Assembly: GCA_963715255.1 (NCBI GenBank)
Contig: CAVQRN010000002.1
Span: 49,185 to 113,184, forward strand
Length of the DNA stretch: 64,000 nt
From: an uncultured Actinomycetota bacterium
Lineage (GTDB): Bacteria; Actinomycetota; Acidimicrobiia; Spongiisociales; UBA5794
Reading direction: 5' to 3'
A program made the position numbers and the translations under genes. Shown one piece after another: positions 10,165 through 21,702 of this stretch. The notes beneath the pieces were generated by a model. It searched no databases. It saw nothing but the letters and a program-made list of their open reading frames with translations, and was not told the DNA's origin. The first letter of the stretch is position 1; every line of letters begins with the position of its first letter.

Positions 10165-10229
10165 GGACCCAACTTAGTCGATTGAACCCTGCCGGTCGGT
10201 ATGAGGCCGCCACTTCTCCCCTGACAAGA

Positions 10230-10296
10230 TCGAGCTACGAGCTGCCGGCTACCGGCAGTCCCCACTCAGCTACTCAGCTACTCAGCTACTCAACCG
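10230..10296. repeat. octamer repeat array (GAGCTAC x2, CTACTCAG x3 plus a small palindrome CCGGCTACCGGCAG)
   Basis: The last repeat unit provides the TGA stop of the amidohydrolase gene. Confidence 0.75.
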
Positions 10297-11654
10297 ACGA
10301 GCCGCGCCGCGGCCATATGGTGCTTCTCGATCAAGACCGGCAGCTCAACACCGACCAGTTCTCCGTCCTTCACGACTGCCCGTCCATGCACGTAGTTCTG
10401 GTCGACACCAGTCGGCGCGACAAAGAGCACGGCGGCAACCGGATCGTGGAGCGCACCGGCATACTCCAAACGGTCGAGCGAGATGGCGATGAAGTCCGCT
10501 CCCTTTCCTGGCTCCAGCGAGCCGACATCGTCCCGCCCGAGGACCGCGGCCGAACCGCGGGTTGCGATCCGAAGTGCTTCTCGTGCCGTGAGCAACCGGC
10601 CGCCTTCGATCGACGGGGCGGCTGCCAGCCGCGCAAGCAGCATCGCCTGCCGGGCTTCGGCGATCAGGTGACTGCCATCGTTGCTCGCCGAGCCGTCCAC
10701 GCCGAGACCGAGTCGAACATTGGACGCCAAGTAGCGCCGGACCGGAGCGATGCCGGATGCGAGGCGCATGTTCGATGACGGACAGTGGGCTACTCCGGTC
10801 CCCGATTCGGAGAGTCTTTCAATCTCGGCGTCGTTGATGTAGATGCCGTGGGCATACCAAACGTCATTGCCAACCCATCCCAGGTCCTCCATGAGTTCGA
10901 CGGGGCGCCGCCCGAACGTCTCGATGCAGAACTGCTCCTCGTCGTGTGTCTCGGCGACGTGGGTGTGGAGATGGACGCCGTAGCGCCGGGCCAGTGCGGC
11001 GGATTCGCGCATCAGGCCCGCGGTCACGGAGAACGGTGAACACGGTGCGACGACGACGCGGGTCATGGCTCCGGGTGCCGGATCGTGGAACGCGTTGATC
11101 ACCCGTTCAGTGTCAAGAAGGATCGTCTCGTCGTCCTCAACCACCGAGTCGGGAGGCAGTCCCCCGTCGCTCTCACCGAGACTCATCGAACCTCTGGCGG
11201 CATGGAAACGCAGCCCAACCGCTGCTGCACCCGCGATCTGGTCGTCGAGGCTCGACCCATTCGGGAAGAGGTACTGGTGGTCAGACGAGGTCGTGCAGCC
11301 GGAGAGTGCCAATTCGGAGAGGGCGAGCTGTGTCGAGATTCTCACATCGTCCGGAGTGAGGCGTGCCCATATGGGATAGAGCGTGCGGAGCCAGTCGAAC
11401 AGGCCAACGTCCTGTGCGCCGGGCACGGCGCGGGTCAGCGTCTGATAGAAGTGATGGTGTGTGTTGATGAGTCCGGGAAGCACGACATGCCCGGAGAGGT
11501 CCACAACGTCGTCGGCCGTCTCGGGAAGCTCCGCGGTCGAGCCGACCTGTTCGATGAACCCGTCGACGGCGAAGAGGCCCCCGTCGCTGATCTCCGTTCC
11601 AGCGTCGTCCATGGTGGCGAGAACCTGCGCGTGCCGAACGAGAAGTGTGCTCAT
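10290..11654 (-). CDS. amidohydrolase superfamily (COG0402), guanine/8-oxoguanine deaminase-like
   Basis: HHHFYQT metal-binding motif and the remaining His/Asp ligands of the TIM-barrel amidohydrolase fold. Start MSTLLVRHAQ at 11654. Confidence 0.75.
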   Translation of the reverse strand: MSTLLVRHAQVLATMDDAGTEISDGGLFAVDGFIEQVGSTAELPETADDVVDLSGHVVLPGLINTHHHFYQTLTRAVPGAQDVGLFDWLRTLYPIWARLTPDDVRISTQLALSELALSGCTTSSDHQYLFPNGSSLDDQIAGAAAVGLRFHAARGSMSLGESDGGLPPDSVVEDDETILLDTERVINAFHDPAPGAMTRVVVAPCSPFSVTAGLMRESAALARRYGVHLHTHVAETHDEEQFCIETFGRRPVELMEDLGWVGNDVWYAHGIYINDAEIERLSESGTGVAHCPSSNMRLASGIAPVRRYLASNVRLGLGVDGSASNDGSHLIAEARQAMLLARLAAAPSIEGGRLLTAREALRIATRGSAAVLGRDDVGSLEPGKGADFIAISLDRLEYAGALHDPVAAVLFVAPTGVDQNYVHGRAVVKDGELVGVELPVLIEKHHMAAARLVG

Positions 11655-11756
11655 AGAGAACAATGTACCAACCCGACCGTGGTCGTCCGTCGGTAGTCGG
11701 GTCCCCGCTTCCTCGATACAATGGCGAGACGGGGTCGAAGAAGAGGAGCGACGAAC

Positions 11757-12497
11757 ATGATTACGCAGTACCACCGACCGCTCACGCTCGAAGAGGCGGT
11801 CGCGCTCACCGCACGACCCGATGCCGTGATCATCGCCGGAGGAACCTCCGTCAATGCCGACCCCGGCCGCAGGCCCGCCACCGCTGTTGACCTGCAAGCG
11901 CTCGACCTCGCAGGAATCGACACCGACGGCGAGTCCATCCGTATCGGTGCGACAACACGCCTCCAAGATCTCGTCGATTCGACACTCGTCCCTGTCGTGC
12001 TCCGCGATCTCGCCCGACGGGAAGCACCGAATACCATCCGCAATGCCGCAACGATTGGCGGAACGATCGGGGCCGTCGATGCAGAGAGCGAACTACTTGC
12101 CGGCCTGCTCGCGTTCGGATCGAGCGTAACGCTCGTGCGTGCCGGTTCGACGACCGAGCATGCTCTCGACGAGATCCTCGACGACCCGGCGCTGCTCAAC
12201 GGAGCCATCATGACCAGCGTATCCATCCCGTCCAACGGACTCGCCGCAGCCGATCGGACCGGTCGCACCCCCATGGATCGGCCGATCGTGATGGCCGTCG
12301 CACACCGGGACCACAAAGGGACCGTTCGGCTGGCCATGACCGGTGTCTTCACCCGCCCCGTTGTGGTCGATCCAGAGCAGATCTCCAGCCTTGATCCACC
12401 ATCCGACTTCCGGGGCTCGCCGGGCTACCGCAAGAACCTTGCCGAGGTACTCGCAGGCAGGGTCCTCGCCACCGTCACCGGAGGTGAACGAACATGA
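11757..12497 (+). CDS. FAD-binding molybdopterin dehydrogenase subunit, second copy
   Basis: AGGAG RBS before the ATG at 11757. IIAGGTSVN FAD motif. Overlaps the next gene by 4 bp. Confidence 0.75.
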   Translation: MITQYHRPLTLEEAVALTARPDAVIIAGGTSVNADPGRRPATAVDLQALDLAGIDTDGESIRIGATTRLQDLVDSTLVPVVLRDLARREAPNTIRNAATIGGTIGAVDAESELLAGLLAFGSSVTLVRAGSTTEHALDEILDDPALLNGAIMTSVSIPSNGLAAADRTGRTPMDRPIVMAVAHRDHKGTVRLAMTGVFTRPVVVDPEQISSLDPPSDFRGSPGYRKNLAEVLAGRVLATVTGGERT

Positions 12498-15388
12498 CGA
12501 TCACCCTCACGATCAACGGGACAAGGCGTTCTCTCCTCTGCGAGCCGCACGAATCTCTCCGCACCGTGCTCCGTCGGGCGGGTTATCACAGTGTTCGGTA
12601 CGGATCGGGAACCGGCGAGACGGGGGCGGCCGCAGTCCTCGTTGACGGCCGCCTCATCTCTGCCGATGTCATGCTCGCCGCACAGGCCGACGGTCATGAC
12701 GTCGAGACGGTCGAAGGCCTGAGCGCGCCAGGCACGCTCCACCCGATCCAGGAAGCGTTCATCGAGACCGGGGCAATTCAGTCGGGCTACTCAACACCTG
12801 CCACGATCCTGGCGGCGAAAGCCCTCATCGACCGGAATCCCGACCCGACGGAGAACGAAGTCCGTGACGCTCTCTCCGGAATCCTCGACAGAGAGACCGG
12901 CTACCTCCGACCGGTCCATGCGGTCCTCCGCGCCGCTGCGGTGTTGCGCGGTGAAACGCCGGAGAGCATCGACGTGGTCTCCCTCGACGCTCTCGTCGGC
13001 ACCGACGGCCAACACGCCGGCACGGACGGCATCAGCGTCATCGCCCCGCGTGTCGTCCCGAGTTCCGACGTCCCCGAAACTCGCGTCGTCGGCAAGCCCG
13101 AGACGAAGGTTGATGCACTCAAACTGGCGAAAGGCAATCCTGCGTTCACCGACGACGTCGATCTGACCGGAATGCTGATCGCAAAGGTGCTCTACAGCCC
13201 CCACGCTCATGCCAGGATCGTTGCCATCGACGATTCGGAAGCGCGGGCGCTGCCCGGCGTTCACGCCGTGCTCCATCACGGCAATGTCTCCCGAGTGCGG
13301 TACGCGTCGGGCGGTCAGAGCTACCCGAATCCGCTCCCCTATGACCAGGTCAGTTTCGACAACAAGGTCCGTTTCGTTGGTGACCGCGTCGCTGCCGTCG
13401 CCGCCGACACCGAGGAGATCGCCCTTGCGGCCGTCGCCTTGATCGATGTCACCTACGAGGTGCTCCCTGCCGTCTTCGATGAGAACGATGCGATCCTCGA
13501 CGGTGCGCCGGTGATCCACGATGAAGCCGACATGGAGGGGGCGCACGACGCCTCCCACAACCTTGTCCATCACATCCAAGCCCAGACCGGCGACGTTGCA
13601 GACGGGTTCGCGAGCGCCGACCGCGTCTTCCAACACACGTCGCGCGTCCACCAGGTCCAGCAGGCACCGATCGAACCACACATTGCGATCTCGGCCTGGG
13701 ACAGCGACGAGCGGCTCGTCATCACATCATCGACCCAGGTGCCCTTCCACGTCCGACGGATGGTCGCTCCGCTGCTCGGGTTGCCGGTGAAGAAGATCCG
13801 AATCATCAAGCCGCGCATCGGCGGCGGTTTCGGCGTCAAACAAGAGATGTTGATCGAGGACATCGTCGGCCACCTCACGATCGTGACCGGCCGTCCGGTT
13901 CGGCTTGAACTCACCCGCGAGGAGGAGTTCATCTCGAGCCGGACCCGACATCCGCAAACGATCACGTTCAAGACCGGCGTCGACGCAAGAGGCAAACTGA
14001 CCGCCCAAGAGATGCGCGTCGTCGCCAACACCGGCGCCTACGGAACCCACGGCCTCACGGTGCAGATGGTGACCGGCCTCCGGGGACTCAGTTCCTACAA
14101 CTCCCCGCTGAAGCGATTCGATTGCAGGGTCGCATACACGAACATCCCAGTCCCAGGGGCCTACCGCGGGTACGGGGCTCCACAGGCGCTCTACGCCCTG
14201 GAGACTCACATGGAGGACATTGCCGACGAACTCGGCATGGACGCAATCGAATTCCGCCGACTGAACTGGACCGGCGTCGGCGACCCGCTCGACATCGCCC
14301 CTCAACTCGGTGAGGGCGACCAGGATGCCAGCGTGATGCCGGTCGTGACATCGAGCGGTCTCGAGGAAGCCGTCGCTCAGGGACAGCGGGCAATCGGATG
14401 GAACCGACGAACCGACGCAGAGTGGCATCGGCCCGCCGACCGACCGAACATCCGCCGGGGCCTCGGATTTGCGATGGCGATGCACGGCACCGCGATCCCC
14501 GGCCTCGACATGGGTGGTGCGAGCCTCAAGATCAACGACGACGGTTCATTCAACTTGCTGGTTGGCGCCACCGATCTTGGAACCGGGTCGGACACGGTGC
14601 TGGCGCAGATCGCTGCGGAAGTGGTCGGTGTACGAACCGATGACATCATCGTCTACTCATCCGACACCGACATGACTCCATTCGATGTTGGTGCGTATGC
14701 GTCGAGCACGACCTACATCTCGGGGATGGCCACCAAACGCGTGGCCGAACAGGTTCGTAGTCAGATCATCGAACGCGCGGCCCTCATGCTCGGCGTCGAA
14801 GGGGACTCGATCGATCTCTACGACGGGTCGGCATGGTCGACCGACGGGCAATCGGTGACGCTTGAGAAGATCGCACTATCCACGCTCCACCAGGAGGGCC
14901 AGCATCAGATCATGGCGGACGCGTCCTACGTCTCGCCGGAGTCGCCTCCACCATATGCGGCCCAGTTCGCTGAGGTCGAGGTTGACATCGAGACGGGGCA
15001 GGTGACCGTCAATCAACTCGTGATGGCGGTCGACTGTGGCGTCCCGATCAACCCGGTCACGGCGTCCGGGCAGGTCGAAGGCGGGATGGTGCAGGCCCTT
15101 GGGTACGGGCACTGCGAGGAGATGGTGTACGACCAGGACGGACGGATGCTCAATCCGCAGTTCGGCCCGTACAAGATCTACCGCGCCGACGAGATGCCAC
15201 GACTCGAGGCGATTCTGGTACAGACGATGGAACCGAGTGGTCCCTTCGGAGCCAAGGCAATCGCCGAGATCCCGAAGGACGCCGTCGCCCCTGCCATCAG
15301 GAACGCGATCGTAGACGCAACCGGTGTTCGGATCGCCAACATCCCGTTCACACCGGAACGCGTCTGGAACGCGCTGCAGCAAGCGTGA
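12494..15388 (+). CDS. fused ferredoxin-like (cysteine-less) and molybdopterin-binding subunit of a xanthine dehydrogenase family enzyme
   Basis: The N-terminal 150 aa align to CoxS but all eight Fe-S cysteines are replaced (YGSGTGETGAAAV; SGYSTPA; DRETGY). About 800 aa follow with the Mo-binding large subunit fold. Confidence 0.8.
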   Translation: MTITLTINGTRRSLLCEPHESLRTVLRRAGYHSVRYGSGTGETGAAAVLVDGRLISADVMLAAQADGHDVETVEGLSAPGTLHPIQEAFIETGAIQSGYSTPATILAAKALIDRNPDPTENEVRDALSGILDRETGYLRPVHAVLRAAAVLRGETPESIDVVSLDALVGTDGQHAGTDGISVIAPRVVPSSDVPETRVVGKPETKVDALKLAKGNPAFTDDVDLTGMLIAKVLYSPHAHARIVAIDDSEARALPGVHAVLHHGNVSRVRYASGGQSYPNPLPYDQVSFDNKVRFVGDRVAAVAADTEEIALAAVALIDVTYEVLPAVFDENDAILDGAPVIHDEADMEGAHDASHNLVHHIQAQTGDVADGFASADRVFQHTSRVHQVQQAPIEPHIAISAWDSDERLVITSSTQVPFHVRRMVAPLLGLPVKKIRIIKPRIGGGFGVKQEMLIEDIVGHLTIVTGRPVRLELTREEEFISSRTRHPQTITFKTGVDARGKLTAQEMRVVANTGAYGTHGLTVQMVTGLRGLSSYNSPLKRFDCRVAYTNIPVPGAYRGYGAPQALYALETHMEDIADELGMDAIEFRRLNWTGVGDPLDIAPQLGEGDQDASVMPVVTSSGLEEAVAQGQRAIGWNRRTDAEWHRPADRPNIRRGLGFAMAMHGTAIPGLDMGGASLKINDDGSFNLLVGATDLGTGSDTVLAQIAAEVVGVRTDDIIVYSSDTDMTPFDVGAYASSTTYISGMATKRVAEQVRSQIIERAALMLGVEGDSIDLYDGSAWSTDGQSVTLEKIALSTLHQEGQHQIMADASYVSPESPPPYAAQFAEVEVDIETGQVTVNQLVMAVDCGVPINPVTASGQVEGGMVQALGYGHCEEMVYDQDGRMLNPQFGPYKIYRADEMPRLEAILVQTMEPSGPFGAKAIAEIPKDAVAPAIRNAIVDATGVRIANIPFTPERVWNALQQA

Positions 15389-16176
15389 ACACGATTGGTC
15401 CCCGGGACATCCTGGCGGAGTTGACCGCCGCCGCCGATGGTGGACGACCGGTCGTGCTCGCCACCATCGTCGGAACCGAGCGGTCGGTCCCCCGGCACGC
15501 GGGCGCCAAGATGGTCGTGCACGCGGATGGGACCACAGTCGGGACGATCGGTGGTGGCGAGGTCGAAGCCCTTGTTCGCGACGAAGCCCTGGCCGTGCTG
15601 AAGGATCGAAGCCCTCGCCTCCGCAGCTTCACGCTCAACGATCCTGAGCAAGGCGACCCCGGTATCTGCGGGGGCACAATGACCGTCTATCTGGAGCCAT
15701 ATATGACCCCGCGCACCGTGTACGTCATCGGAGCCGGTCACGTCGGTCGCTCCGTCGTCGACCTCGCCGACTGGCTCGGGTACCGCACCGTCGTCGTCGA
15801 CGACCGGGCCGACCTCGTGACCGAGGAGGCCATGCCGAATGCCGGCGTCCGCTTCACGGGCTCCGTGAAGGACGCCCTCGCTGAGCACCCTGCAGATGAA
15901 ACCACCGCCGTCGTCGTCGTGACGAGGAGTCACGAGCTCGACGCCCAGATTCTGCCGATCCTCCTCGAAACGTCCGCTCCCTACATCGGTGTGATGGGTA
16001 GCAAACGCCGGTGGGCAACGACCCGGGAAGCACTGGTCGAATCGGGCACGTCCGCCGAGGCGCTTGGCCGGGTCCACGTTCCGATCGGCCTCAGCATTGG
16101 TGCCGAGACCGTCGAGGAGATCGCTGTGTCGATCATGTCCGAGATCATCGAGTCGGCTGCGGCGAGCAACGGGTGA
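15385..16176 (+). CDS. xdhC: XdhC/CoxI family molybdenum hydroxylase maturation factor
   Basis: XdhC N-terminal domain (VVLATIVGTERSVPRHAGAKMVV) and Rossmann-like C-terminal domain. 4-bp overlaps on both sides. Confidence 0.8.
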   Translation: MNTIGPRDILAELTAAADGGRPVVLATIVGTERSVPRHAGAKMVVHADGTTVGTIGGGEVEALVRDEALAVLKDRSPRLRSFTLNDPEQGDPGICGGTMTVYLEPYMTPRTVYVIGAGHVGRSVVDLADWLGYRTVVVDDRADLVTEEAMPNAGVRFTGSVKDALAEHPADETTAVVVVTRSHELDAQILPILLETSAPYIGVMGSKRRWATTREALVESGTSAEALGRVHVPIGLSIGAETVEEIAVSIMSEIIESAAASNG

Positions 16177-16979
16177 TCGACTTCTCCGACCATCTCGTCG
16201 TCGTCCGCGGCGGCGGCGACCTCGGGTCCGGTGTCATTTGGCGTCTGGCTCGGGTTGGTTTCCCCGTCGTCGTCCTCGAACTCGAGCGTCCTCTGACGGT
16301 GCGGCGCACCGTTGCTTTCTCGTCGGCCGTCGACCAGGGACGCGTCGTGATCGACGGCATCGAGGGCGTCTTGGTCTCCTCGGCCGAAACGGCCATCGAG
16401 ACCGCCGAGAGGGGCGCTGTGCCGGTTCTCGTGTCCCCCGACGTCCCTGTGCTTCCCATGCCGATCTCAACGCTCGTCGATGCCCGACTTGCCAAACAGG
16501 TACTCGACACGACCATCGACCGGGCACCGTTCGTCGTTGGACTCGGCCCCGGGTTCGTCGCGGGTCGCGATTGCGATGCGGTCATCGAGACGATGCGCGG
16601 CCACCGACTCGGTCGGGTCATCTGGGACGGACCGGCAGCACCGAACACCGGCGTCCCCGGCGAGATCGGTGGCGCATCCGGAGATCGTGTGCTCCGGGCG
16701 GAAACTGACGGTGAGCTCCGGTGGAACGTCTCCTTCGGTGACCGCGTCGAACCGGGCCGGCTGCTCGGCACCATCGAGGGCACTCCGGTGAAGGCGAAGA
16801 CCGGGGGAACGGTGCGCGGCCTGATCCAGCCGGGACCCGTCGAGATCGGTCTCAAGATCGGCGACGTTGACCCCCGATTCGATCCAGATGCCATTCATCA
16901 GATCTCCGACAAAGCACTCTCGATCGGCGGCGCCGTGCTCGAAGCCATCCTCGTCCGGGCGGGCGGCGCCGGAAGATGA
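16173..16979 (+). CDS. yqeB: selenium-dependent molybdenum hydroxylase system protein, YqeB family
   Basis: GTG start overlapping the xdhC stop. N-terminal LVVVRGGGDLGSGVIWRLARVGFPVVVLE matches the YqeB family N-terminal region as I recall it. Confidence 0.7.
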   Translation: MIDFSDHLVVVRGGGDLGSGVIWRLARVGFPVVVLELERPLTVRRTVAFSSAVDQGRVVIDGIEGVLVSSAETAIETAERGAVPVLVSPDVPVLPMPISTLVDARLAKQVLDTTIDRAPFVVGLGPGFVAGRDCDAVIETMRGHRLGRVIWDGPAAPNTGVPGEIGGASGDRVLRAETDGELRWNVSFGDRVEPGRLLGTIEGTPVKAKTGGTVRGLIQPGPVEIGLKIGDVDPRFDPDAIHQISDKALSIGGAVLEAILVRAGGAGR

Positions 16980-17692
16980 CGGCACCGCTGAGAGATCGCT
17001 TCGGTATCGGCTCGCGCGAGCTCGTCTCGATCGTCGGTGCAGGCGGCAAGTCCACGATCCTCTTCGCTCTCGGGCGCGAGCTTGCCGGCTCGTCGGGTCG
17101 GGTCGTTCTCACGACGACAACGAAGATGGCAATCGACCAAGTCACCGAGCCGATCTGTTGGTCGGATGACCCGGCCGTTGTCGAGGCGGCACTCGTTCCG
17201 GGGCATCCGGTGTTCGTGGCGATGGGCCGGATCCCCGGCAAGGTCACCGGCCCTTCACCGGAGGCTGTCGATCGCCTCTTCTCCGAGACGACGGCCCAGT
17301 ACATCCTGGTCGAAGCCGACGGGGCTCGGTCGATGTCGATCAAGGCGCCGGCCGATCACGAGCCGGCAATCCCAAGTAACTCGACCACGGTGATCGTGGT
17401 CGCCGGCATCGATGCCACCGGCCGGCCAATCTCCGAGGTAGCGCATCGCCCCGATCTCGTCGCGAGGATCACAGGTATTGGAGCAGACGACGTCTTGACC
17501 ATCGAGGGCGCCGCTTCCGTCCTTCTCCACCGGAGTGGCGGCCTGAAGGGAATCCCAGATGCCGCACGAGTGGTGATGGCGATCACAAAAGTGACCCCGG
17601 ACGACGAACAAGGAGCGAACCAGTTGGCGGCAATCCTCGAACGCCACCCAAGGACCGACATGACGATCAAATTGGGGACTTCTCAGCTTTGA
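16976..17692 (+). CDS. yqeC: selenium-dependent hydroxylase accessory protein YqeC
   Basis: LVSIVGAGGKSTILFALGREL...VVLTTTTKM P-loop signature, as I recall for the YqeC family. 4-bp overlap with yqeB. Confidence 0.7.
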   Translation: MTAPLRDRFGIGSRELVSIVGAGGKSTILFALGRELAGSSGRVVLTTTTKMAIDQVTEPICWSDDPAVVEAALVPGHPVFVAMGRIPGKVTGPSPEAVDRLFSETTAQYILVEADGARSMSIKAPADHEPAIPSNSTTVIVVAGIDATGRPISEVAHRPDLVARITGIGADDVLTIEGAASVLLHRSGGLKGIPDAARVVMAITKVTPDDEQGANQLAAILERHPRTDMTIKLGTSQL

Positions 17693-17740: not shown

Positions 17741-19143
17741 TACCCGACCACTGATTCCGGCAGCAACGCATTCGTTCCACGATGCAGATACTCCCCGCGC
17801 CCGGGTTCGCCGACGAATTCACCGAGATCGACGATGACCTCTCCGCGCAGCATGACGGTCTCGACGCGGCCACCGATCTCCGCACCCTCGAAGACCGAGT
17901 AATCGAGATTCATCGAATGCGTCGCTGCAGACAGTGTGTGTGATGCGGCAGGGTCGTAGATGACGACGTCGGCGTCGGACCCGGGAGCGATACGTGCCCT
18001 TCTTCGGGTAGATCCCGGACAGCTTGGCAGGCGTCTCCGCGGTTACTTCGATCCACCTGGTGAGTGGAATCCAGCCTTCCACGACACCCTGGTAGACGAG
18101 ATCCACTCGGTGCTCGACAACGCCGAGGCCGTTCGGGATCTTGCGGAAGTCTCCCCGCCCCGCCTCCTTCTGCTTCCACGTGAACGGGCAGTGGTCGGTG
18201 GCGACCGCGTCGATCCTGCCGGTCGAGACCCCGGACCACAGCGCCGCTTGGTGTCCTTCACTGCGACGCCGCAGCGGTGGCGAACAGACGAACTTCGCTG
18301 CCTCGAATCCCTCGGGGAGGTCCTCCTGGGCGAGCCAGAGGTACTGGGGACAGGTTTCGGTGAAGACGGGCAGGCCCCGATCACGAGCGACGACGGCCTC
18401 AGCGAATGCATCCTGCGAAGAGATGTGCACGATCACAAGAGCGCATCCCACGATTTCCGCGAGTGCGGCAACACGATGGACGGCTTCGGCCTCCATCGAG
18501 GCCGGTCGGGTCAGCAGGTGGTAGATCGGATCGGTCTCGCCTCGGGCAATGGCCTGATCCCGAAGGGCGTCGATGGCGATTCCGTTCTCGGCATGCATCA
18601 TGATCGTGGCGCCGATCGAGGCAGCGACCTGCATCGCTTCGAGGATCTGCCGATCGTCAGACAGATTCACGCCCGGGTACACGGTGAAGAGCTTGAAGGT
18701 GGTGACCCCCGCATGCATCATCTCGGCGAATTCGCCGAGCGTGCCTTCATGGACGTCGGTGACCATCATGTGGAATCCGTAGTCGATGAACGACTTCCCC
18801 TCGGCGCGATCCATCCATTCGGCGAGTCCGTCTTTGAGCGTTCCTCCCCGTGTCTGGCCGGCGTAGTCGACGATCGTCGTTGTCCCACCGATAGCAGCAG
18901 CCCTCGTGCCCGTCTCATACGTATCTGCCGACGACGTCCCAGAGACCGGCAACTCCATGTGCGTATGCATGTCGACGCCGCCGGGAATCACGTACCGTCC
19001 GGTGGCGTCGATCACTCGGTCGAATTCGTCTCCCGCTGCGCCGGGTTCGACGACACCGACGATGCGCTCTCCCTCGACGACGACATCTGCCTCCGTCGCC
19101 ACGGCACCCGTCACGACCGTTCCGTTACTGATGAGTGTTCGCA
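17741..19143 (-). CDS. dihydropyrimidinase/D-hydantoinase (cyclic amidohydrolase); apparent +1 insertion frameshift near 18003
   Basis: DMHTHME metal site, carboxylated-Lys region and DHCPF motif. After ...PAKLSGIYPKKGT the frame switches. The alternative frame gives the expected IAPGSDADVVIYDP...LRGEVIVD C-terminus. Start MRTLISNG at 19143. Confidence 0.75.
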
Positions 19144-19269
19144 TGGTCCCATCATGGTCGATGACGCGGCGGTGCACGAGTAGGGGCCGAAGGTCGCAAC
19201 ACCGCATCTCTGTGGCAGCGTAGGAGTTGTTGAGTAGTGCGATTGCCCAGATCGGCTTACGATCGGTCC

Positions 19270-19600
19270 CCCCGGCCGCGTCTTCTTCCTCCCCCTCAGG
19301 GGGAGGTGCCGCCCGTAGGGCGGCCGAGGGGGTCAAAGAGTCCCGTTGTGCGAACCGCGAACCATACAACGGTCCCCTCGGCGTCTTGTTCTTCCTCCCC
19401 CTCAGGGGGAGGTGCCGCCCGCAGGGCGGCCGGAAGGGGGTCGAAGGGGTTCCGATTCGCGAATCGCGAACCATACAACGGTCCCCTCGGCCGTAGGCCG
19501 GGGGGACGCGGAGCGAAGCGACGCAGGGGGGCGTCTTCTTCTTCCTCCCCCTCAGGGGGAGGTGCCGCCCGCAAGGCGGCGGTGGGGGTCGGACCGTGAC
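19270..19600. repeat. imperfect tandem repeat (units about 105-145 bp, about 2.6 copies). Each unit carries two adjacent perfect GC-rich hairpins: CCTCCCCCTCAGGGGGAGG and GCCGCCCGYAGGGCGGC
   Basis: Three copies of TTCTTCCTCCCCCTCAGGGGGAGGTGCCGCCCG-AGGGCGGC start near 19281, 19389 and 19535. Two copies of CGCGAACCATACAACGGTCCCCTCGGC are interleaved. Sits in the divergent region between the dihydropyrimidinase and DUF222-HNH genes. Confidence 0.75.
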
Positions 19601-19787
19601 CGGTGTGGGACCCCCGCCAGGGCTCCTCAGACTTCTTCGGCAACCCTGCTGTGTGAGCCGGTTTCTTGTCTTACCTGGTTGATACGTTGCGCATATGGAC
19701 ACGACAGACGACTCTGACGATGGATGCGATCGAACAGTCCCTCGCCGACGGCGAGGCGACGATCGCTGAGGGTCCGCGCGGTCTCAG

Positions 19788-20849
19788 ATGGTGTTGATTC
19801 GTGAAGCCGACCGCCGGCAGGCGCCGCTCGCAGACGGCTGCCGGTCTCTCGCAGAGTGGGTGACGGGCCGTCTCGATGTTGCACCAGAGACGGCGAAGAC
19901 CTTGGTGTCGACGGCTCGGCGTCTCGAATCGCTCCCCACGGTCGAACACGCCACCGCCGTCGGGTCGATCAGCTTCGATCGGACCGTCGAGGCGGCCCGG
20001 ATCGCTCTCCCATCCGAAGACGCCACGATCGTCGACGAACTTGCCGTCTTCGACGTCGCTGCGATTCGGCGTCTCGTGTCGAACCGGCACCGCATGACCC
20101 GTGACACAGAGCGTGAAGTGTTCGAGACCCGCTATGTGGCGGTGCAGGCGAACCTGGACGAGTCGTCGTGGCGGGTCCACGGACAACTCCCCGCCACAGC
20201 CGGCAGATGCTTCGTTGACGCCCTCGACGCCAAAGCCGACCAGTTACCACCCGATCCGGACGGGGATCGCAGTCGGACGACCCGCTACGCCGATGCGTTG
20301 TGGGCCATCAGCGTCGACTCGCTCGCTGGTAGCGACGGCGCCACGGTCGAATCTGCGACACCGCTGTTGACCGTCTTCGTCGACGCCCACGATGCTGCCG
20401 GGACGAACGGTGAGACCGGCGTGATGATTGAAGCCGGACCCAGAGTCGGACCCGCAACGATCGAAGCGATCCTCTGCGACGGGGTCATCGAAGTCACCGG
20501 CCGAACACAAGACGGCACACCGGTGAATATGGGACGCCGCAGCCGCACCATCCCACCCAGGCTGAAACGCTTCGTTCTCGCCCGCGACGGCGGCGTGTGC
20601 ACCATTGCGGGCTGTGTCAGTAGGTACCGGCTCCAACCACACCACATCACCCCCTGGTCCCAAGGCGGCGCCACCGACGCCGACAACCTCACCACACTCT
20701 GCTGGTTCCACCACCACGTCGTCATCCACGGCCGAGGCTTCACCATCAACCCCTCATCCCCACCCCAACGCCGCCGACTCCGTCGACCATGGATCCACGC
20801 TCCACCGCCGCGGTCCGACTACGCGGGTGACATTCATGTTCACTACTAG
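19788..20849 (+). CDS. DUF222 plus HNH endonuclease domain protein (mycobacterial REP13E12-type); the N-terminus looks short or possibly frameshifted
   Basis: C-terminal HNH motif HHITPWSQGG...NLTTLCWFHH. DUF222-like central region. A 25-aa ORF (19719-19796) in another frame abuts the start. Confidence 0.7.
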   Translation: MVLIREADRRQAPLADGCRSLAEWVTGRLDVAPETAKTLVSTARRLESLPTVEHATAVGSISFDRTVEAARIALPSEDATIVDELAVFDVAAIRRLVSNRHRMTRDTEREVFETRYVAVQANLDESSWRVHGQLPATAGRCFVDALDAKADQLPPDPDGDRSRTTRYADALWAISVDSLAGSDGATVESATPLLTVFVDAHDAAGTNGETGVMIEAGPRVGPATIEAILCDGVIEVTGRTQDGTPVNMGRRSRTIPPRLKRFVLARDGGVCTIAGCVSRYRLQPHHITPWSQGGATDADNLTTLCWFHHHVVIHGRGFTINPSSPPQRRRLRRPWIHAPPPRSDYAGDIHVHY

Positions 20850-21051
20850 CACCCCTACCGGTCGCACCGACCCGGATTCCGCACAGGGCCTCACGGCCGC
20901 CGAACTCGATGATCTCATCTGGGATGTCGCCGTGGGAAGACCAACGCGCGTCGTGCTCGATACGGAGAGGAAGCGCGCCGCGTACTTCGCCGTGCACAAG
21001 CGGATCCAGGAGGCCGTAGCCAGGAGTCGCCGGTCCGCAGCACCTGGATAG
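20836..21051 (+). CDS. hypothetical small protein (72 aa)
   Basis: ORF MFTTSTPTGRTD...WDVAVGRPTRVVLDTERKRAAYFAVHKRIQEA, followed by a strong hairpin. No family assignment. Confidence 0.3.
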   Translation: MFTTSTPTGRTDPDSAQGLTAAELDDLIWDVAVGRPTRVVLDTERKRAAYFAVHKRIQEAVARSRRSAAPG

Positions 21052-21077: not shown

Positions 21078-21103
21078 AAGGCCCGGTCAACGACCGGGCC
21101 TTC
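21078..21103. terminator. perfect 10-bp-stem hairpin AAGGCCCGGT-CAACG-ACCGGGCCTT
   Basis: Sits immediately 3' (on the minus strand) of the duplicated tmRNA 3' end, so it looks like the original ssrA terminator. It could also terminate the plus-strand small ORF. Confidence 0.5.
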
Positions 21104-21127
21104 GGTGGAGGTGGGGGGAATCGAACC
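21103..21127. repeat. 25-bp direct duplicate of the tmRNA 3' end (CGGTGGAGGTGGGGGGAATCGAACC)
   Basis: Identical to 21260-21284, the acceptor/T-arm end of ssrA, and 132 bp away from it. Confidence 0.75.
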
Positions 21128-21260: not shown

Positions 21261-21617
21261 CGGTGGAGGTGGGGGGAATCGAACCCCCGTCCCACGAGGT
21301 TTCAGCGTCGGCATCTCCGAGCGCAGCCGACAGCGAGCTTTCGGAACCTGAGAGACGCCGTCGGCAGTTTCTCCTGGGTCCTAGTCGGAATTGTCTTACC
21401 CCGCCGATCCCGACATCCCGGCGGGGGCATCCTGCATTGTTATGCCCGGATCCGGCGAGACAGGCACCCTCCGGTCGGACACGCTGCGTTAATTATGCAG
21501 CGAATGCGTAACTTTCGTTATTGGCACTTATGTTTGTTCCCGGCTCTTTAACGAGGCTCCGGGGACCTCGGCTCGCTTCCGGCGCCTCAACCCTCACGGT
21601 CGAAACCATGTCACCCC
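21261..21617 (-). ncRNA. ssrA: tmRNA (ssrA), about 357 nt
   Basis: Read on the minus strand: 5' GGGGGUGACAUGGUUUCGAC..., 3' ...GGACGGGGGUUCGAUUCCCCCCACCUCCACC. Internal tag reading frame GCC AAU AAC GAA AGU UAC GCA UUC GCU GCA UAA (ANNESYAFAA*). smpB lies 1.6 kb away. Confidence 0.85.
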
Positions 21618-21702
21618 CATTTCTGGGGAACACGCTTGGCGCGTTCATCACGCTCAAGAGTAGTCGTGCGATCCCGTCACCGCTTGCCCGTTTTCCCGCT
21701 AG

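Follow-up and report, generated by a model that had tools for sequence, protein, structure and literature searches.

A family of double-hairpin DNA modules linked to nuclease genes and its three-copy cluster upstream of a DUF222-HNH gene in an uncultured actinobacterium

Two divergent genes of an uncultured Actinomycetota bacterium (contig CAVQRN010000002.1, assembly GCA_963715255.1), one for a dihydropyrimidinase and the other for a protein with DUF222 and HNH domains, are separated by an intergenic region of about 540 nt which holds an array of palindromic repeats at positions 19264-19618. The locus raises the question of whether this array serves the genes on either side of it, for example as a repeated operator or an attenuator, or whether it is part of a repeat that belongs with the HNH gene, as in the REP13E12 elements of Mycobacterium tuberculosis; the original prediction, made from the sequence of this stretch, had named all of these options. 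Here, the window is the whole 64-kb stretch of DNA that was analysed, all unprefixed coordinates are window positions, and L- and P-numbers denote the related loci and homologous proteins with which it was compared. In our moderately confident reading of the sequence comparisons, the array is probably a cluster of the cis-acting ends of a nuclease-associated element family, akin to REPINs and miniature inverted-repeat transposable elements (MITEs), placed on the 5' flank of the HNH unit.

A dispersed family of structured modules

At the heart of the array is a 37-nt double palindrome, CCTCCCCC-TCA-GGGGGAGG-T-GCCGCCC-GYA-GGGCGGC, in which one hairpin (hairpin A) is followed by another (hairpin B). 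Pattern matching places this core at 19288-19324 and 19394-19430 without mismatches and at 19544-19580 with one, which sits in hairpin B (GCCGCCC-GCA-AGGCGGC); there is no further copy in the window, and none is expected from shuffled sequences. Each module closes with a conserved G-rich third element, which reads CGAGGGGG, CGGAAGGGGG and GGTGGGGG in copies 1, 2 and 3, respectively. A covariance model of hairpin A, hairpin B and the third element (R1, trained on 29 diverse module copies) gives 58-71 bits for the window copies, and no other part of the window exceeds 23 bits.

The module is far from confined to this locus. When one genome per species (a species-representative set) was scanned with the pattern CCTCCCCCNNNGGGGGAGGNGCCGCC, the exact core was found in 101 stretches from several phyla. 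Most of the matches come from metagenome-assembled genomes (MAGs) of Oscillospiraceae and other Clostridia, with at least 35 exact-core copies in one Oscillospiraceae MAG, and several copies occur in each of about ten MAGs from Acidimicrobiia or other actinobacteria, where the maximum is four exact-core copies per Acidimicrobiia MAG; the remainder are from Sphingomonadales, Caulobacter, Dehalococcoidia, Phycisphaerales, Dormibacterota and Oceanithermus. Almost every match runs on into a full hairpin B and then GGAGGGGG, beyond what the search pattern demanded, and numerous matches lie at the ends of MAG contigs, as would be expected of assembly-breaking repeats. The core pattern is absent from viral contigs, and the whole array, used as a query against a plasmid collection, gave a single match, in Pleomorphomonas. 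Among 4227 Rfam models, none reached its gathering threshold in the window except that for tmRNA, with nothing above chance in 19100-19800, and 12 loci with consensus copies likewise had no Rfam match, permissive thresholds adding nothing in either case; a literature search with the literal sequences returned two irrelevant matches only (human or mouse).

Complete elements are built in more than one way. In the dyad form of actinobacteria and alphaproteobacteria, hairpin A, a T, hairpin B and GGAGGGGGTCA lead into a centre, which is followed by TGACCCCCTCC, hairpin B', CCA and hairpin A'; the order of module, centre and inverted module is found in L003, L026, L048, L054, L063, L065, L069, L076 and the Pleomorphomonas plasmid. 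A second subtype has a right half composed of two further hairpins, C and D, as in the window (L027, L037, L072 and L089). L027 and L084 are syntenic yet have different sets of parts, which makes the family a mosaic. An apparent gene start behind some modules ("ATGACCCACGAAGAG") was considered and set aside, as it opens no open reading frame (ORF) and belongs to a longer element. In rumen and gut Oscillospiraceae (L002-L101; MAG RUI441 and others) the core lies within an element of about 95 nt with an extra upstream hairpin, GCGGGTytaAGGGGGCGCAGCCCCCTC, and at two loci tandem copies stand about 190 nt apart. Short runs of 7-nt tandem repeats (CAGTACT, GGCAACA, GGACAGC, CGGGCTA, TACCGAC, GGCTGTC, GGTATTC, GGTCGCC) adjoin elements in the related Acidimicrobiia loci L046, L069, L072, L089, L131, L170 and L197; none occurs within the window array.

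Variation among the copies preserves the structure. Across 103 distinct aligned copies, 90.8% of cells are paired and both sides have changed in 107 cells, covering 12 of the 14 pairs, in an alignment that was fitted to the covariance model and is to that extent biased towards structure. None of 500 shuffles reached the observed pairing statistic, and the signal falls away when the partner is shifted by one, two or three columns. Hairpin B in particular varies and stays a hairpin, as in GCAGC/GCTGAC, CTCCGAGC/GCTCGGAG, GGCAATGCAG/CTGCATTGCC, CGGCCAAGC/GCTTGGCCG and GTCTCGCC/GGCGAGAG, and compensatory changes are carried by hairpins A and B alike.

The third element follows a different rule, in that it reads as the 3' arm of hairpin A reversed rather than complemented, and tracks the changes in that arm. 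In most copies the arm GGGGGAGG is matched by GGAGGGGG, and further pairs of arm and third element are GGGGAGGG with GGGAGGGG, GGGGGAGA with AGAGGGGG, GGGAGAGGC with CGGAGAGGG, GGGGAAGG with GGAAGGGG (Pleomorphomonas) and CGGGGAGG with GGAGGGGGC (Sphingomonas). With 32 arm classes, a permutation test gave an observed mirror score of 196.0 against 180.1 (sd 3.4) for permuted pairs, a level reached by none of 5000 permutations, although the copies are related and this is not a clean probability. Mirror symmetry of this kind does not come from Watson-Crick pairing, but would be given by a triple helix of the purine motif, in which the third strand runs antiparallel to the purine arm through G*G-C and A*A-T or T*A-T triples. 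The mirrored third element would, by these rules, fit an intramolecular triplex that turns at hairpin B. A C-rich tract to one side offers the third element another pairing partner in many copies, with the result that several folds compete. A G-quadruplex was also considered, but would leave unexplained the way in which the A of the third element shifts its position along with the hairpin arm. At L126 (1700-1970), a second palindrome (CCTCAATCCACGG...CCGTGGATTGAGG, about 200 nt as judged by eye) lies within the hairpin A loop of a module upstream of an HNH gene.

Linkage to nuclease genes and change in copy number

Two families of nuclease genes keep company with the module, and the tallies of this association are our own counts. 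In two Acidimicrobiia loci (L030 160-700 and L057 2050-2600) inverted modules bracket a small gene whose product is a DUF559 protein (Pfam E 6e-36), restriction-endonuclease-like and of the MTES_1575 type. Modules flank DUF559 genes in L030, L057, L187-L194 and L202, and five of the six DUF559 homologues that were placed have modules on one or both sides, the sixth having a different palindrome. L188-L191 carry complete palindromic elements at DUF559, the module-flanked gene adjoins ATP synthase genes in L187 and L192, and in an alphaproteobacterial MAG (L193/L194) the DUF559 ORF stands between a plus-strand and a minus-strand module. At a Reyranella DUF559 locus the palindrome is a different, long one, again with mirrored C-tracts. 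On a closed replicon of Sphingomonas parapaucimobilis (L202), module, DUF559 gene and inverted module are inserted between pntAA and pntAB, precisely from the stop of the former to the start of the latter, with an inverted repeat of 27-29 nt in which hairpin B is not alike at the two ends. Related C-rich/G-rich inverted ends are found on a second S. parapaucimobilis replicon (L199), with two CCCCTCCCGC/GCGGGAGGGG hairpins on either side of the DUF559 gene, in Azospirillum lipoferum (L200), with a perfect (100%) 24-nt inverted repeat containing the self-mirror GGGGAGAGGGG, and in Deinococcus proteolyticus (L201), where a 56-nt, 95% inverted repeat of the same type surrounds DUF559; this last repeat also lies beside DUF559 in three other Deinococcus replicons. 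The bracketing of DUF559 spans Actinomycetota, Alphaproteobacteria and Deinococcota. Our literature search found nothing connecting DUF559 with repeats, and the PADLOC defence models gave no meaningful match for either the DUF559 or the HNH nuclease.

For the DUF222-HNH genes, we examined 80 metagenomic loci with relatives of 42-91% identity; many homologues of the gene sit on contigs of 1.3-3 kb. As a rough figure, relatives have the module about 245 nt upstream of the gene. In 14 of the 80 loci, and in L105 and L197 besides, the covariance model finds a module 243-323 nt ahead of the matched HNH start and on the strand of the gene (in all L104, L105, L108, L109, L116, L122, L123, L126, L127, L131, L133, L140, L144, L152, L180 and L197). 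Where identity is at least 58% and at least 300 nt of upstream sequence is available, the upstream module is present in 8 of 15 loci. Nine loci have a module within about 100 nt after the HNH gene (L115, L121, L122, L124, L125, L127, L138, L142 and L197): five have it on the same strand and three have it inverted, L197 being the ninth. In contrast to this recurrence beside HNH genes, the modules of the window are confined to the array. As a separate observation, the module behind the HNH gene in L197/L198 (3477-4100) is adjoined by a fragment of an IS110-family transposase; IS110-type elements target palindromic repeats.

Two loci show the array's flank in other surroundings. L105 has an 87%-identical HNH gene in an unrelated neighbourhood (ArsA, ThyX), preceded by the same flank of about 250 nt with hairpins C and D, module, spacer block and promoter. 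L089 retains a full unit from module to hairpin D and the promoter block in front of an internally deleted HNH remnant, again among unrelated neighbours. Together with the near-fixed upstream distance in relatives, these loci support a REP13E12-like repeat tied to the HNH gene, and the originally suggested look beside other DUF222-HNH genes finds the module upstream and, in many cases, close behind the gene too. Between close relatives, copy number at the array ranges from one to three. L102, with a dihydropyrimidinase 96% identical to that of the window, has hairpins C and D, a 75-nt insert and one degenerate module, and its sister contig breaks within hairpin C; in L104 all three units are full, and the decay of their hairpin A stems is uncompensated; the window has three, one of them internally deleted.

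The HNH gene also has a conserved promoter block of its own. In the window this RecA-NDp-like promoter with its start occupies 19666-19697 of the plus strand and reads TTGTCTTAC-ctggttga-TACGTT-gcgcat-ATG, with TTGTC at 19666-19670, an 8-nt spacer after TTAC, the -10 hexamer TACGTT at 19683-19688 and the ATG at 19695-19697, 6 nt beyond the hexamer. The arrangement TGTC-N4-N8-TAnnnT, followed after 4-9 nt (mostly 6) by an ATG, is present in 72 of the 73 HNH loci with sufficient upstream sequence. It matches the mycobacterial RecA-NDp/PafBC consensus, tTGTCRgtg-8 nt-TAnnnT (PMC5656591), and mycobacterial 13E12 genes are damage-induced and carry the RecA-NDp motif or LexA sites (PMC3381160). From this likeness we infer promoter activity: the window HNH gene is probably DNA-damage-inducible, and the conserved block predicts leaderless, damage-inducible expression of the DUF222-HNH family beyond mycobacteria.

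The position of this promoter also bears on the array. Given the spacing between the -10 hexamer and the ATG, the predicted transcript is leaderless, which puts the array upstream of the promoter and outside the HNH leader. An attenuator, one of the roles first proposed, is therefore unlikely; an intrinsic terminator or attenuator was rejected on the additional ground that no U-run follows hairpin A or B. The array is a repeat cluster of the HNH unit and not a regulatory leader of either neighbouring gene.

Anatomy of the array and its neighbours

A repeat finder reports a 63-nt block three times, starting at 19264, 19370 and 19520, with start-to-start distances of 106 and 150 nt. A 27-nt repeat, CGCGAACCATACAACGGTCCCCTCGGC, occurs exactly twice (19356-19382 and 19465-19491) and contains CCCCTCGGC, the 3' strand of a helix that pairs with the third element, so the true unit is a multi-hairpin element of 106-150 nt. 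In full, the unit runs from the third element through a variable centre, hairpin C, the short hairpin D, a G-tract and CGTCTTCTTCTT to the next hairpin A; all units in the window are direct and none is inverted. Tandem Repeats Finder called no array, large indels separating the units. As single-stranded DNA (ssDNA), the whole array folds at -122 kcal/mol against -92 in shuffles (z = -6.05) and lone modules at z = -2.5 to -4.6, the fold predicted for these being exactly hairpins A and B, with programs that cover Watson-Crick and G-U pairs only.

Much of the original description of the array stands. Its three double-hairpin copies are real, their exact positions being given by the sequence, the repeat finder and the pattern match, and the 27-bp repeat is present twice as described. 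Two perfect palindromes per module hold for copies 1 and 2, the mismatch in hairpin B of copy 3 being the exception, and the 45-bp module contains the double palindrome but is too small, as the unit extends through the G-rich third element. That this is not a CRISPR array is also upheld by the 106- and 150-nt spacing and by "spacers" that are themselves repeated; the flanking genes, to which the screen was limited, are not cas genes. The flanking genes are as named, with the minus-strand dihydropyrimidinase on one side and the plus-strand DUF222-HNH gene, identified by Pfam, on the other.

Read along the plus strand, the array opens with a junction piece (19264-19287) in which the left arm of hairpin C, GGTCCCCCCGGCC, is fused to GCGTCTTCTT; its word GTCCCCYCGGC recurs at 19372 and 19481, with the complement at 19496-19507. 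Module 1 (19284-19337; R1 69.0 bits, E 1.9e-16; DNA fold z = -3.65) comprises hairpin A at 19288-19306, hairpin B at 19308-19324 and CGAGGGGG at 19325-19332. The centre of unit 1 (19338-19382) includes the first copy of the 27-nt repeat, and its CCCCTCGGC forms a helix with GCCGAGGGG in module 1 when 19264-19382 is folded. Set beside the full units of L104 and L089, unit 1 is without the right arm of hairpin C and the whole of hairpin D, an internal deletion at GGC microhomology. Module 2 (19390-19445; 58.3 bits, E 1.3e-13) has hairpin A at 19394-19412, hairpin B at 19414-19430 and CGGAAGGGGG at 19431-19440. It is followed by the centre of unit 2 (19446-19543), with the second 27-nt repeat, hairpin C (GTCCCCTCGGCC-GTA-GGCCGGGGGGAC, 19481-19507), hairpin D and the G-tract (19508-19531) and the CGTCTTCTTCTT junction (19532-19543), an order of parts that is identical in L027, L037, L072, L089 and L104. 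Module 3 (19540-19593; 70.7 bits, E 6.7e-17), with hairpin A at 19544-19562, hairpin B at 19564-19580 and GGTGGGGG at 19581-19588, is the copy common to the syntenic L102 and L104 and the non-syntenic L105. The closing hairpin of unit 3 (GGTGGGGGTC ... GACCCCCGCC, 19581-19618) gives 19540-19618 a DNA fold of -30.9 kcal/mol (z = -4.63), and a conserved spacer block (GGCTCCTCAGACTTCTTCGGCAAC..., 19619-19665), aligned with L102, L104, L105 and other HNH loci, leads from the module to the promoter.

The dihydropyrimidinase gene (17743-19156, minus strand, start at about 19144-19156) encodes an amidohydrolase/dihydropyrimidinase 96% identical to P0001 and has a frame shift near 17993-18003. The DUF222-HNH gene, of the REP13E12 type, extends over 19695-20849 on the plus strand; its 353-aa ORF (19788-20849) matches DUF222 (PF02720, E 2.4e-15) and HNH (PF01844, E 1.1e-7), as does P0122, and the 5' 90 nt are out of frame. 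This break, affecting about the first 28 codons (19695-19790), was seen by tblastn with P0122 and by comparison with L102 and L104. The frame shifts in both neighbours of the array, as judged against close homologues, represent either true pseudogenes or indel errors of assembly, and the locus may be decaying. A 71-codon ORF (20836-21051, plus strand) overlaps the HNH stop and is kept downstream of the HNH gene in L104, L107, L108, L120 and L135; it has no Pfam match. A molybdenum hydroxylase cluster that includes the accessory genes for YqeC and XdhC occupies 10182-17692, upstream of the dihydropyrimidinase in the window, and is kept in L102, L104 and L197. On the minus strand, a tmRNA gene (21261-21618, tag ANNESYAFAA) has its last 25 nt (21261-21285) duplicated at 21103-21127, 134 nt downstream and directly before the original terminator hairpin, which resembles the scar of a small integration; L108 and L120 have no such duplication, and there the HNH unit directly abuts the tmRNA gene. 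An island bounded by tmRNA att repeats was rejected, as the 25-nt duplicate encloses just 134 nt and the array and HNH gene lie outside it.

Interpretation and comparison with known systems

From the linkage described above we infer a working relation between nuclease and module, together with mobility of the unit. The elements would be small units with modules as their ends, some of which carry DUF559 or DUF222-HNH, the latter with its own damage-type promoter, and many of which would be gene-less miniatures. In single-stranded form the module would fold into a cis site, to be recognised or cut by the nuclease that accompanies it. Homing endonucleases occur in both nuclease folds, which makes break repair between copies, through homing or gene conversion, the most economical guess for how they spread, a single-strand copy-out resembling that of RAYTs being the alternative. 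Cluster size would most likely have changed through unequal recombination or slippage between units.

Several observations weigh against this account. We found no target-site duplication or empty site, the two loci compared (L027 and L084) both being filled, and a downstream module is missing from the HNH unit in the clade of the window itself. The source genome was covered over 64 kb, which hold just this one cluster. The stem decay in L104 may mean that the copies at this locus are inert relics, and the nuclease link may fail in some lineages, as Oscillospiraceae have dozens of copies and no DUF559 or DUF222 gene was seen in the stretches examined. A bolder version, which we regard as unlikely, would have the module as an ssDNA device, in which hairpin A provides the duplex and hairpin B the turn, and the groove takes up the mirrored purine tract as a purine-motif triple helix. 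It would be the substrate of both DUF559 and DUF222-HNH nucleases, and so define a new class of nuclease-driven mobile elements, autonomous and miniature, in Actinomycetota, Alphaproteobacteria, Deinococcota and probably Bacillota and Chloroflexota, activated by damage in actinobacteria through the PafBC-type promoter.

The alternatives differ in how much of this evidence they can accommodate. Rather improbable, in our view, is a REP-like element that serves its host as a U-less terminator, an insulator or a 3'-end stabiliser, and which at this locus would shield the two divergent promoters from each other. Several solo modules do begin 0-60 nt past the stop of a co-directional gene (L027, L030, L046, L047, L048, L063 and L084), copies downstream of HNH genes are often on the gene strand, and the array has stable hairpins and two weak terminator-like sites (a hairpin followed by CTTCTTCTT). 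Yet U-runs are absent, the terminator scan found three sites against 1.1 expected, which is not significant, the two weak hairpin sites end in CTTCTT, and between divergent starts there is nothing to terminate. The orientation of solo modules relative to genes is itself blurred, since many copies fell "inside" ORFs in high-G+C DNA under crude ORF calling, and a host role leaves unexplained both the mirrored third element and the inverted ends around nuclease genes. The inverted doublets and clusters are equally REPIN-like in architecture, and GGGGGTCAG at the module end fits the GGGGWSAS consensus of the double-palindromic inverted repeats around TIRYT genes (PMC3733652). A REP/REPIN family whose mobility depends on a tyrosine (HUH) transposase of the RAYT or TIRYT type, encoded at some other site in the genome, with the nuclease genes as mere neighbours, nonetheless has a low probability: the palindromes have no GTAG or CGTC head next to them, what the modules in fact bracket are DUF559 and HNH genes, and a search of about 1.1 Mb of loci for Y1 transposase-like ORFs came up empty, although it was a weak test.

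Readings that tie the array to the function of the HNH gene or its neighbour fare somewhat worse. A structured non-coding RNA that partners the HNH protein, as the HEARO/omega RNA does IscB, or otherwise regulates the HNH gene would account for helices that co-vary and for a conserved position upstream of HNH on the same strand. We rate it a little lower still, as nothing in Rfam matches, the HNH promoter lies downstream of the module with a leaderless start, the same module stands beside unrelated DUF559 genes in either orientation, the element as a whole is palindromic and the stems decay in L104. The repeated operator for both divergent genes is suggested by 19-bp perfect palindromes, three times over, in a divergent intergenic region; it has gained no positive evidence and is very improbable, being hard to reconcile with dozens of dispersed copies of identical palindromes at unrelated loci of several phyla, with the one degenerate copy in the close relative L102, and with helices in which compensatory changes are tolerated, a sign that folding matters and not the base-specific recognition of a duplex. 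A local slippage duplication without wider meaning, which the original prediction would have thought probable had no other copies existed and had related strains lacked the array, is the least probable of all. The units are tandem and their number varies among relatives, but slippage would account for the size of the cluster and not for an element that is structured and present in 101 stretches elsewhere. An integron attC site was also rejected, the module having no R'/R'' core sites, as judged on sequence alone with no integrase search made.

If the link to nucleases holds, DUF559 and DUF222-HNH proteins (the 13E12 proteins of mycobacteria), which to our knowledge are very common families without a known biological role, would be the enzyme partners of a structured repeat, as RAYT is to REP, and their function would become directly testable. 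The repeat would also account for one class of repeats that break the assembly of environmental genomes, represent a natural, conserved mirror-repeat and hence triplex-capable DNA motif under selection, and constitute a selfish element tied to the LexA-independent DNA-damage response of actinobacteria.

Comparison with known systems places the family between several of them. In common with MITEs and their parent insertion sequences it has terminal inverted repeats around a small gene (L193, L201 and L202) or a short non-coding centre, and insertions that are intergenic, one of them within an operon; it differs in that Pfam recognises only DUF559/MTES_1575 and DUF222 plus HNH, with no transposase, and in having ends that are hairpins in their own right. 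Free-standing homing endonuclease genes (HNH and Vsr-like/EDxHD) are likewise small selfish nuclease genes of the same two folds, and a repeated target would permit spread by break repair; we know of none with structured inverted ends or gene-less miniature copies. The likeness to H-DNA, at the level of base order, lies in homopurine mirror tracts beside their pyrimidine complement (GGGGGAGG ... GGAGGGGG and five co-varying variants), with covariation that keeps the mirror; here the duplex part would be a hairpin and the linker a second hairpin.

Closer parallels exist among repeats named after their genes. TIRtrons (Di Nocera et al. 2013, PMC3733652) are TIRYT genes with long, sometimes double-palindromic inverted repeats sharing GGGGWSAS. 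The present elements are similar in their double-palindromic, inverted, G-rich ends, of which many fit that consensus through GGGGGTCAG, and in their solo, dimeric and clustered copies of moderate abundance, a likeness at the level of the consensus; they differ in that no tyrosine transposase lies between the ends at any locus seen here. REP13E12/13E12 of M. tuberculosis shares the DUF222 plus HNH ORF, non-syntenic copies, decayed remnants and a RecA-NDp-type promoter (PMC3381160); as to occurrence at several genomic sites, the copies seen here are the non-syntenic L105 and the remnant L089, both in other MAGs. The upstream double-hairpin module is not described for it in the literature searched, the mycobacterial copies having been compared by description only, and the HNH clade of the window, unlike REP13E12, adjoins a tmRNA gene. 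The REP/REPIN-RAYT systems (REPtrons) and the BIMEs of Escherichia coli also consist of short, stable, dispersed intergenic palindromes that occur singly, as inverted doublets and in mosaic clusters, with one enzyme gene bracketed by repeats and a likely recognition of folded ssDNA. Inverted doublets able to form a long hairpin are present in our family in relatives of the window (L026, L048, L054, L063, L065, L069, L076, L186, L188 and L190) rather than in the window itself. In place of the GTAG/CGTC head of a REP, TCTT/GATT stands before hairpin A and T before hairpin B, GTAG occurring only in the hairpin C loop and CGTC 10 nt upstream of hairpin A in some copies. The enzyme of a REPtron is a Y1/HUH transposase, whereas the candidates here are PD-(D/E)XK/Vsr-like DUF559 and DUF222-HNH nucleases, and the module, unlike a REP, combines two hairpins with a mirrored purine tract and retains a near-identical core across several phyla, where REPs are usually lineage-specific.

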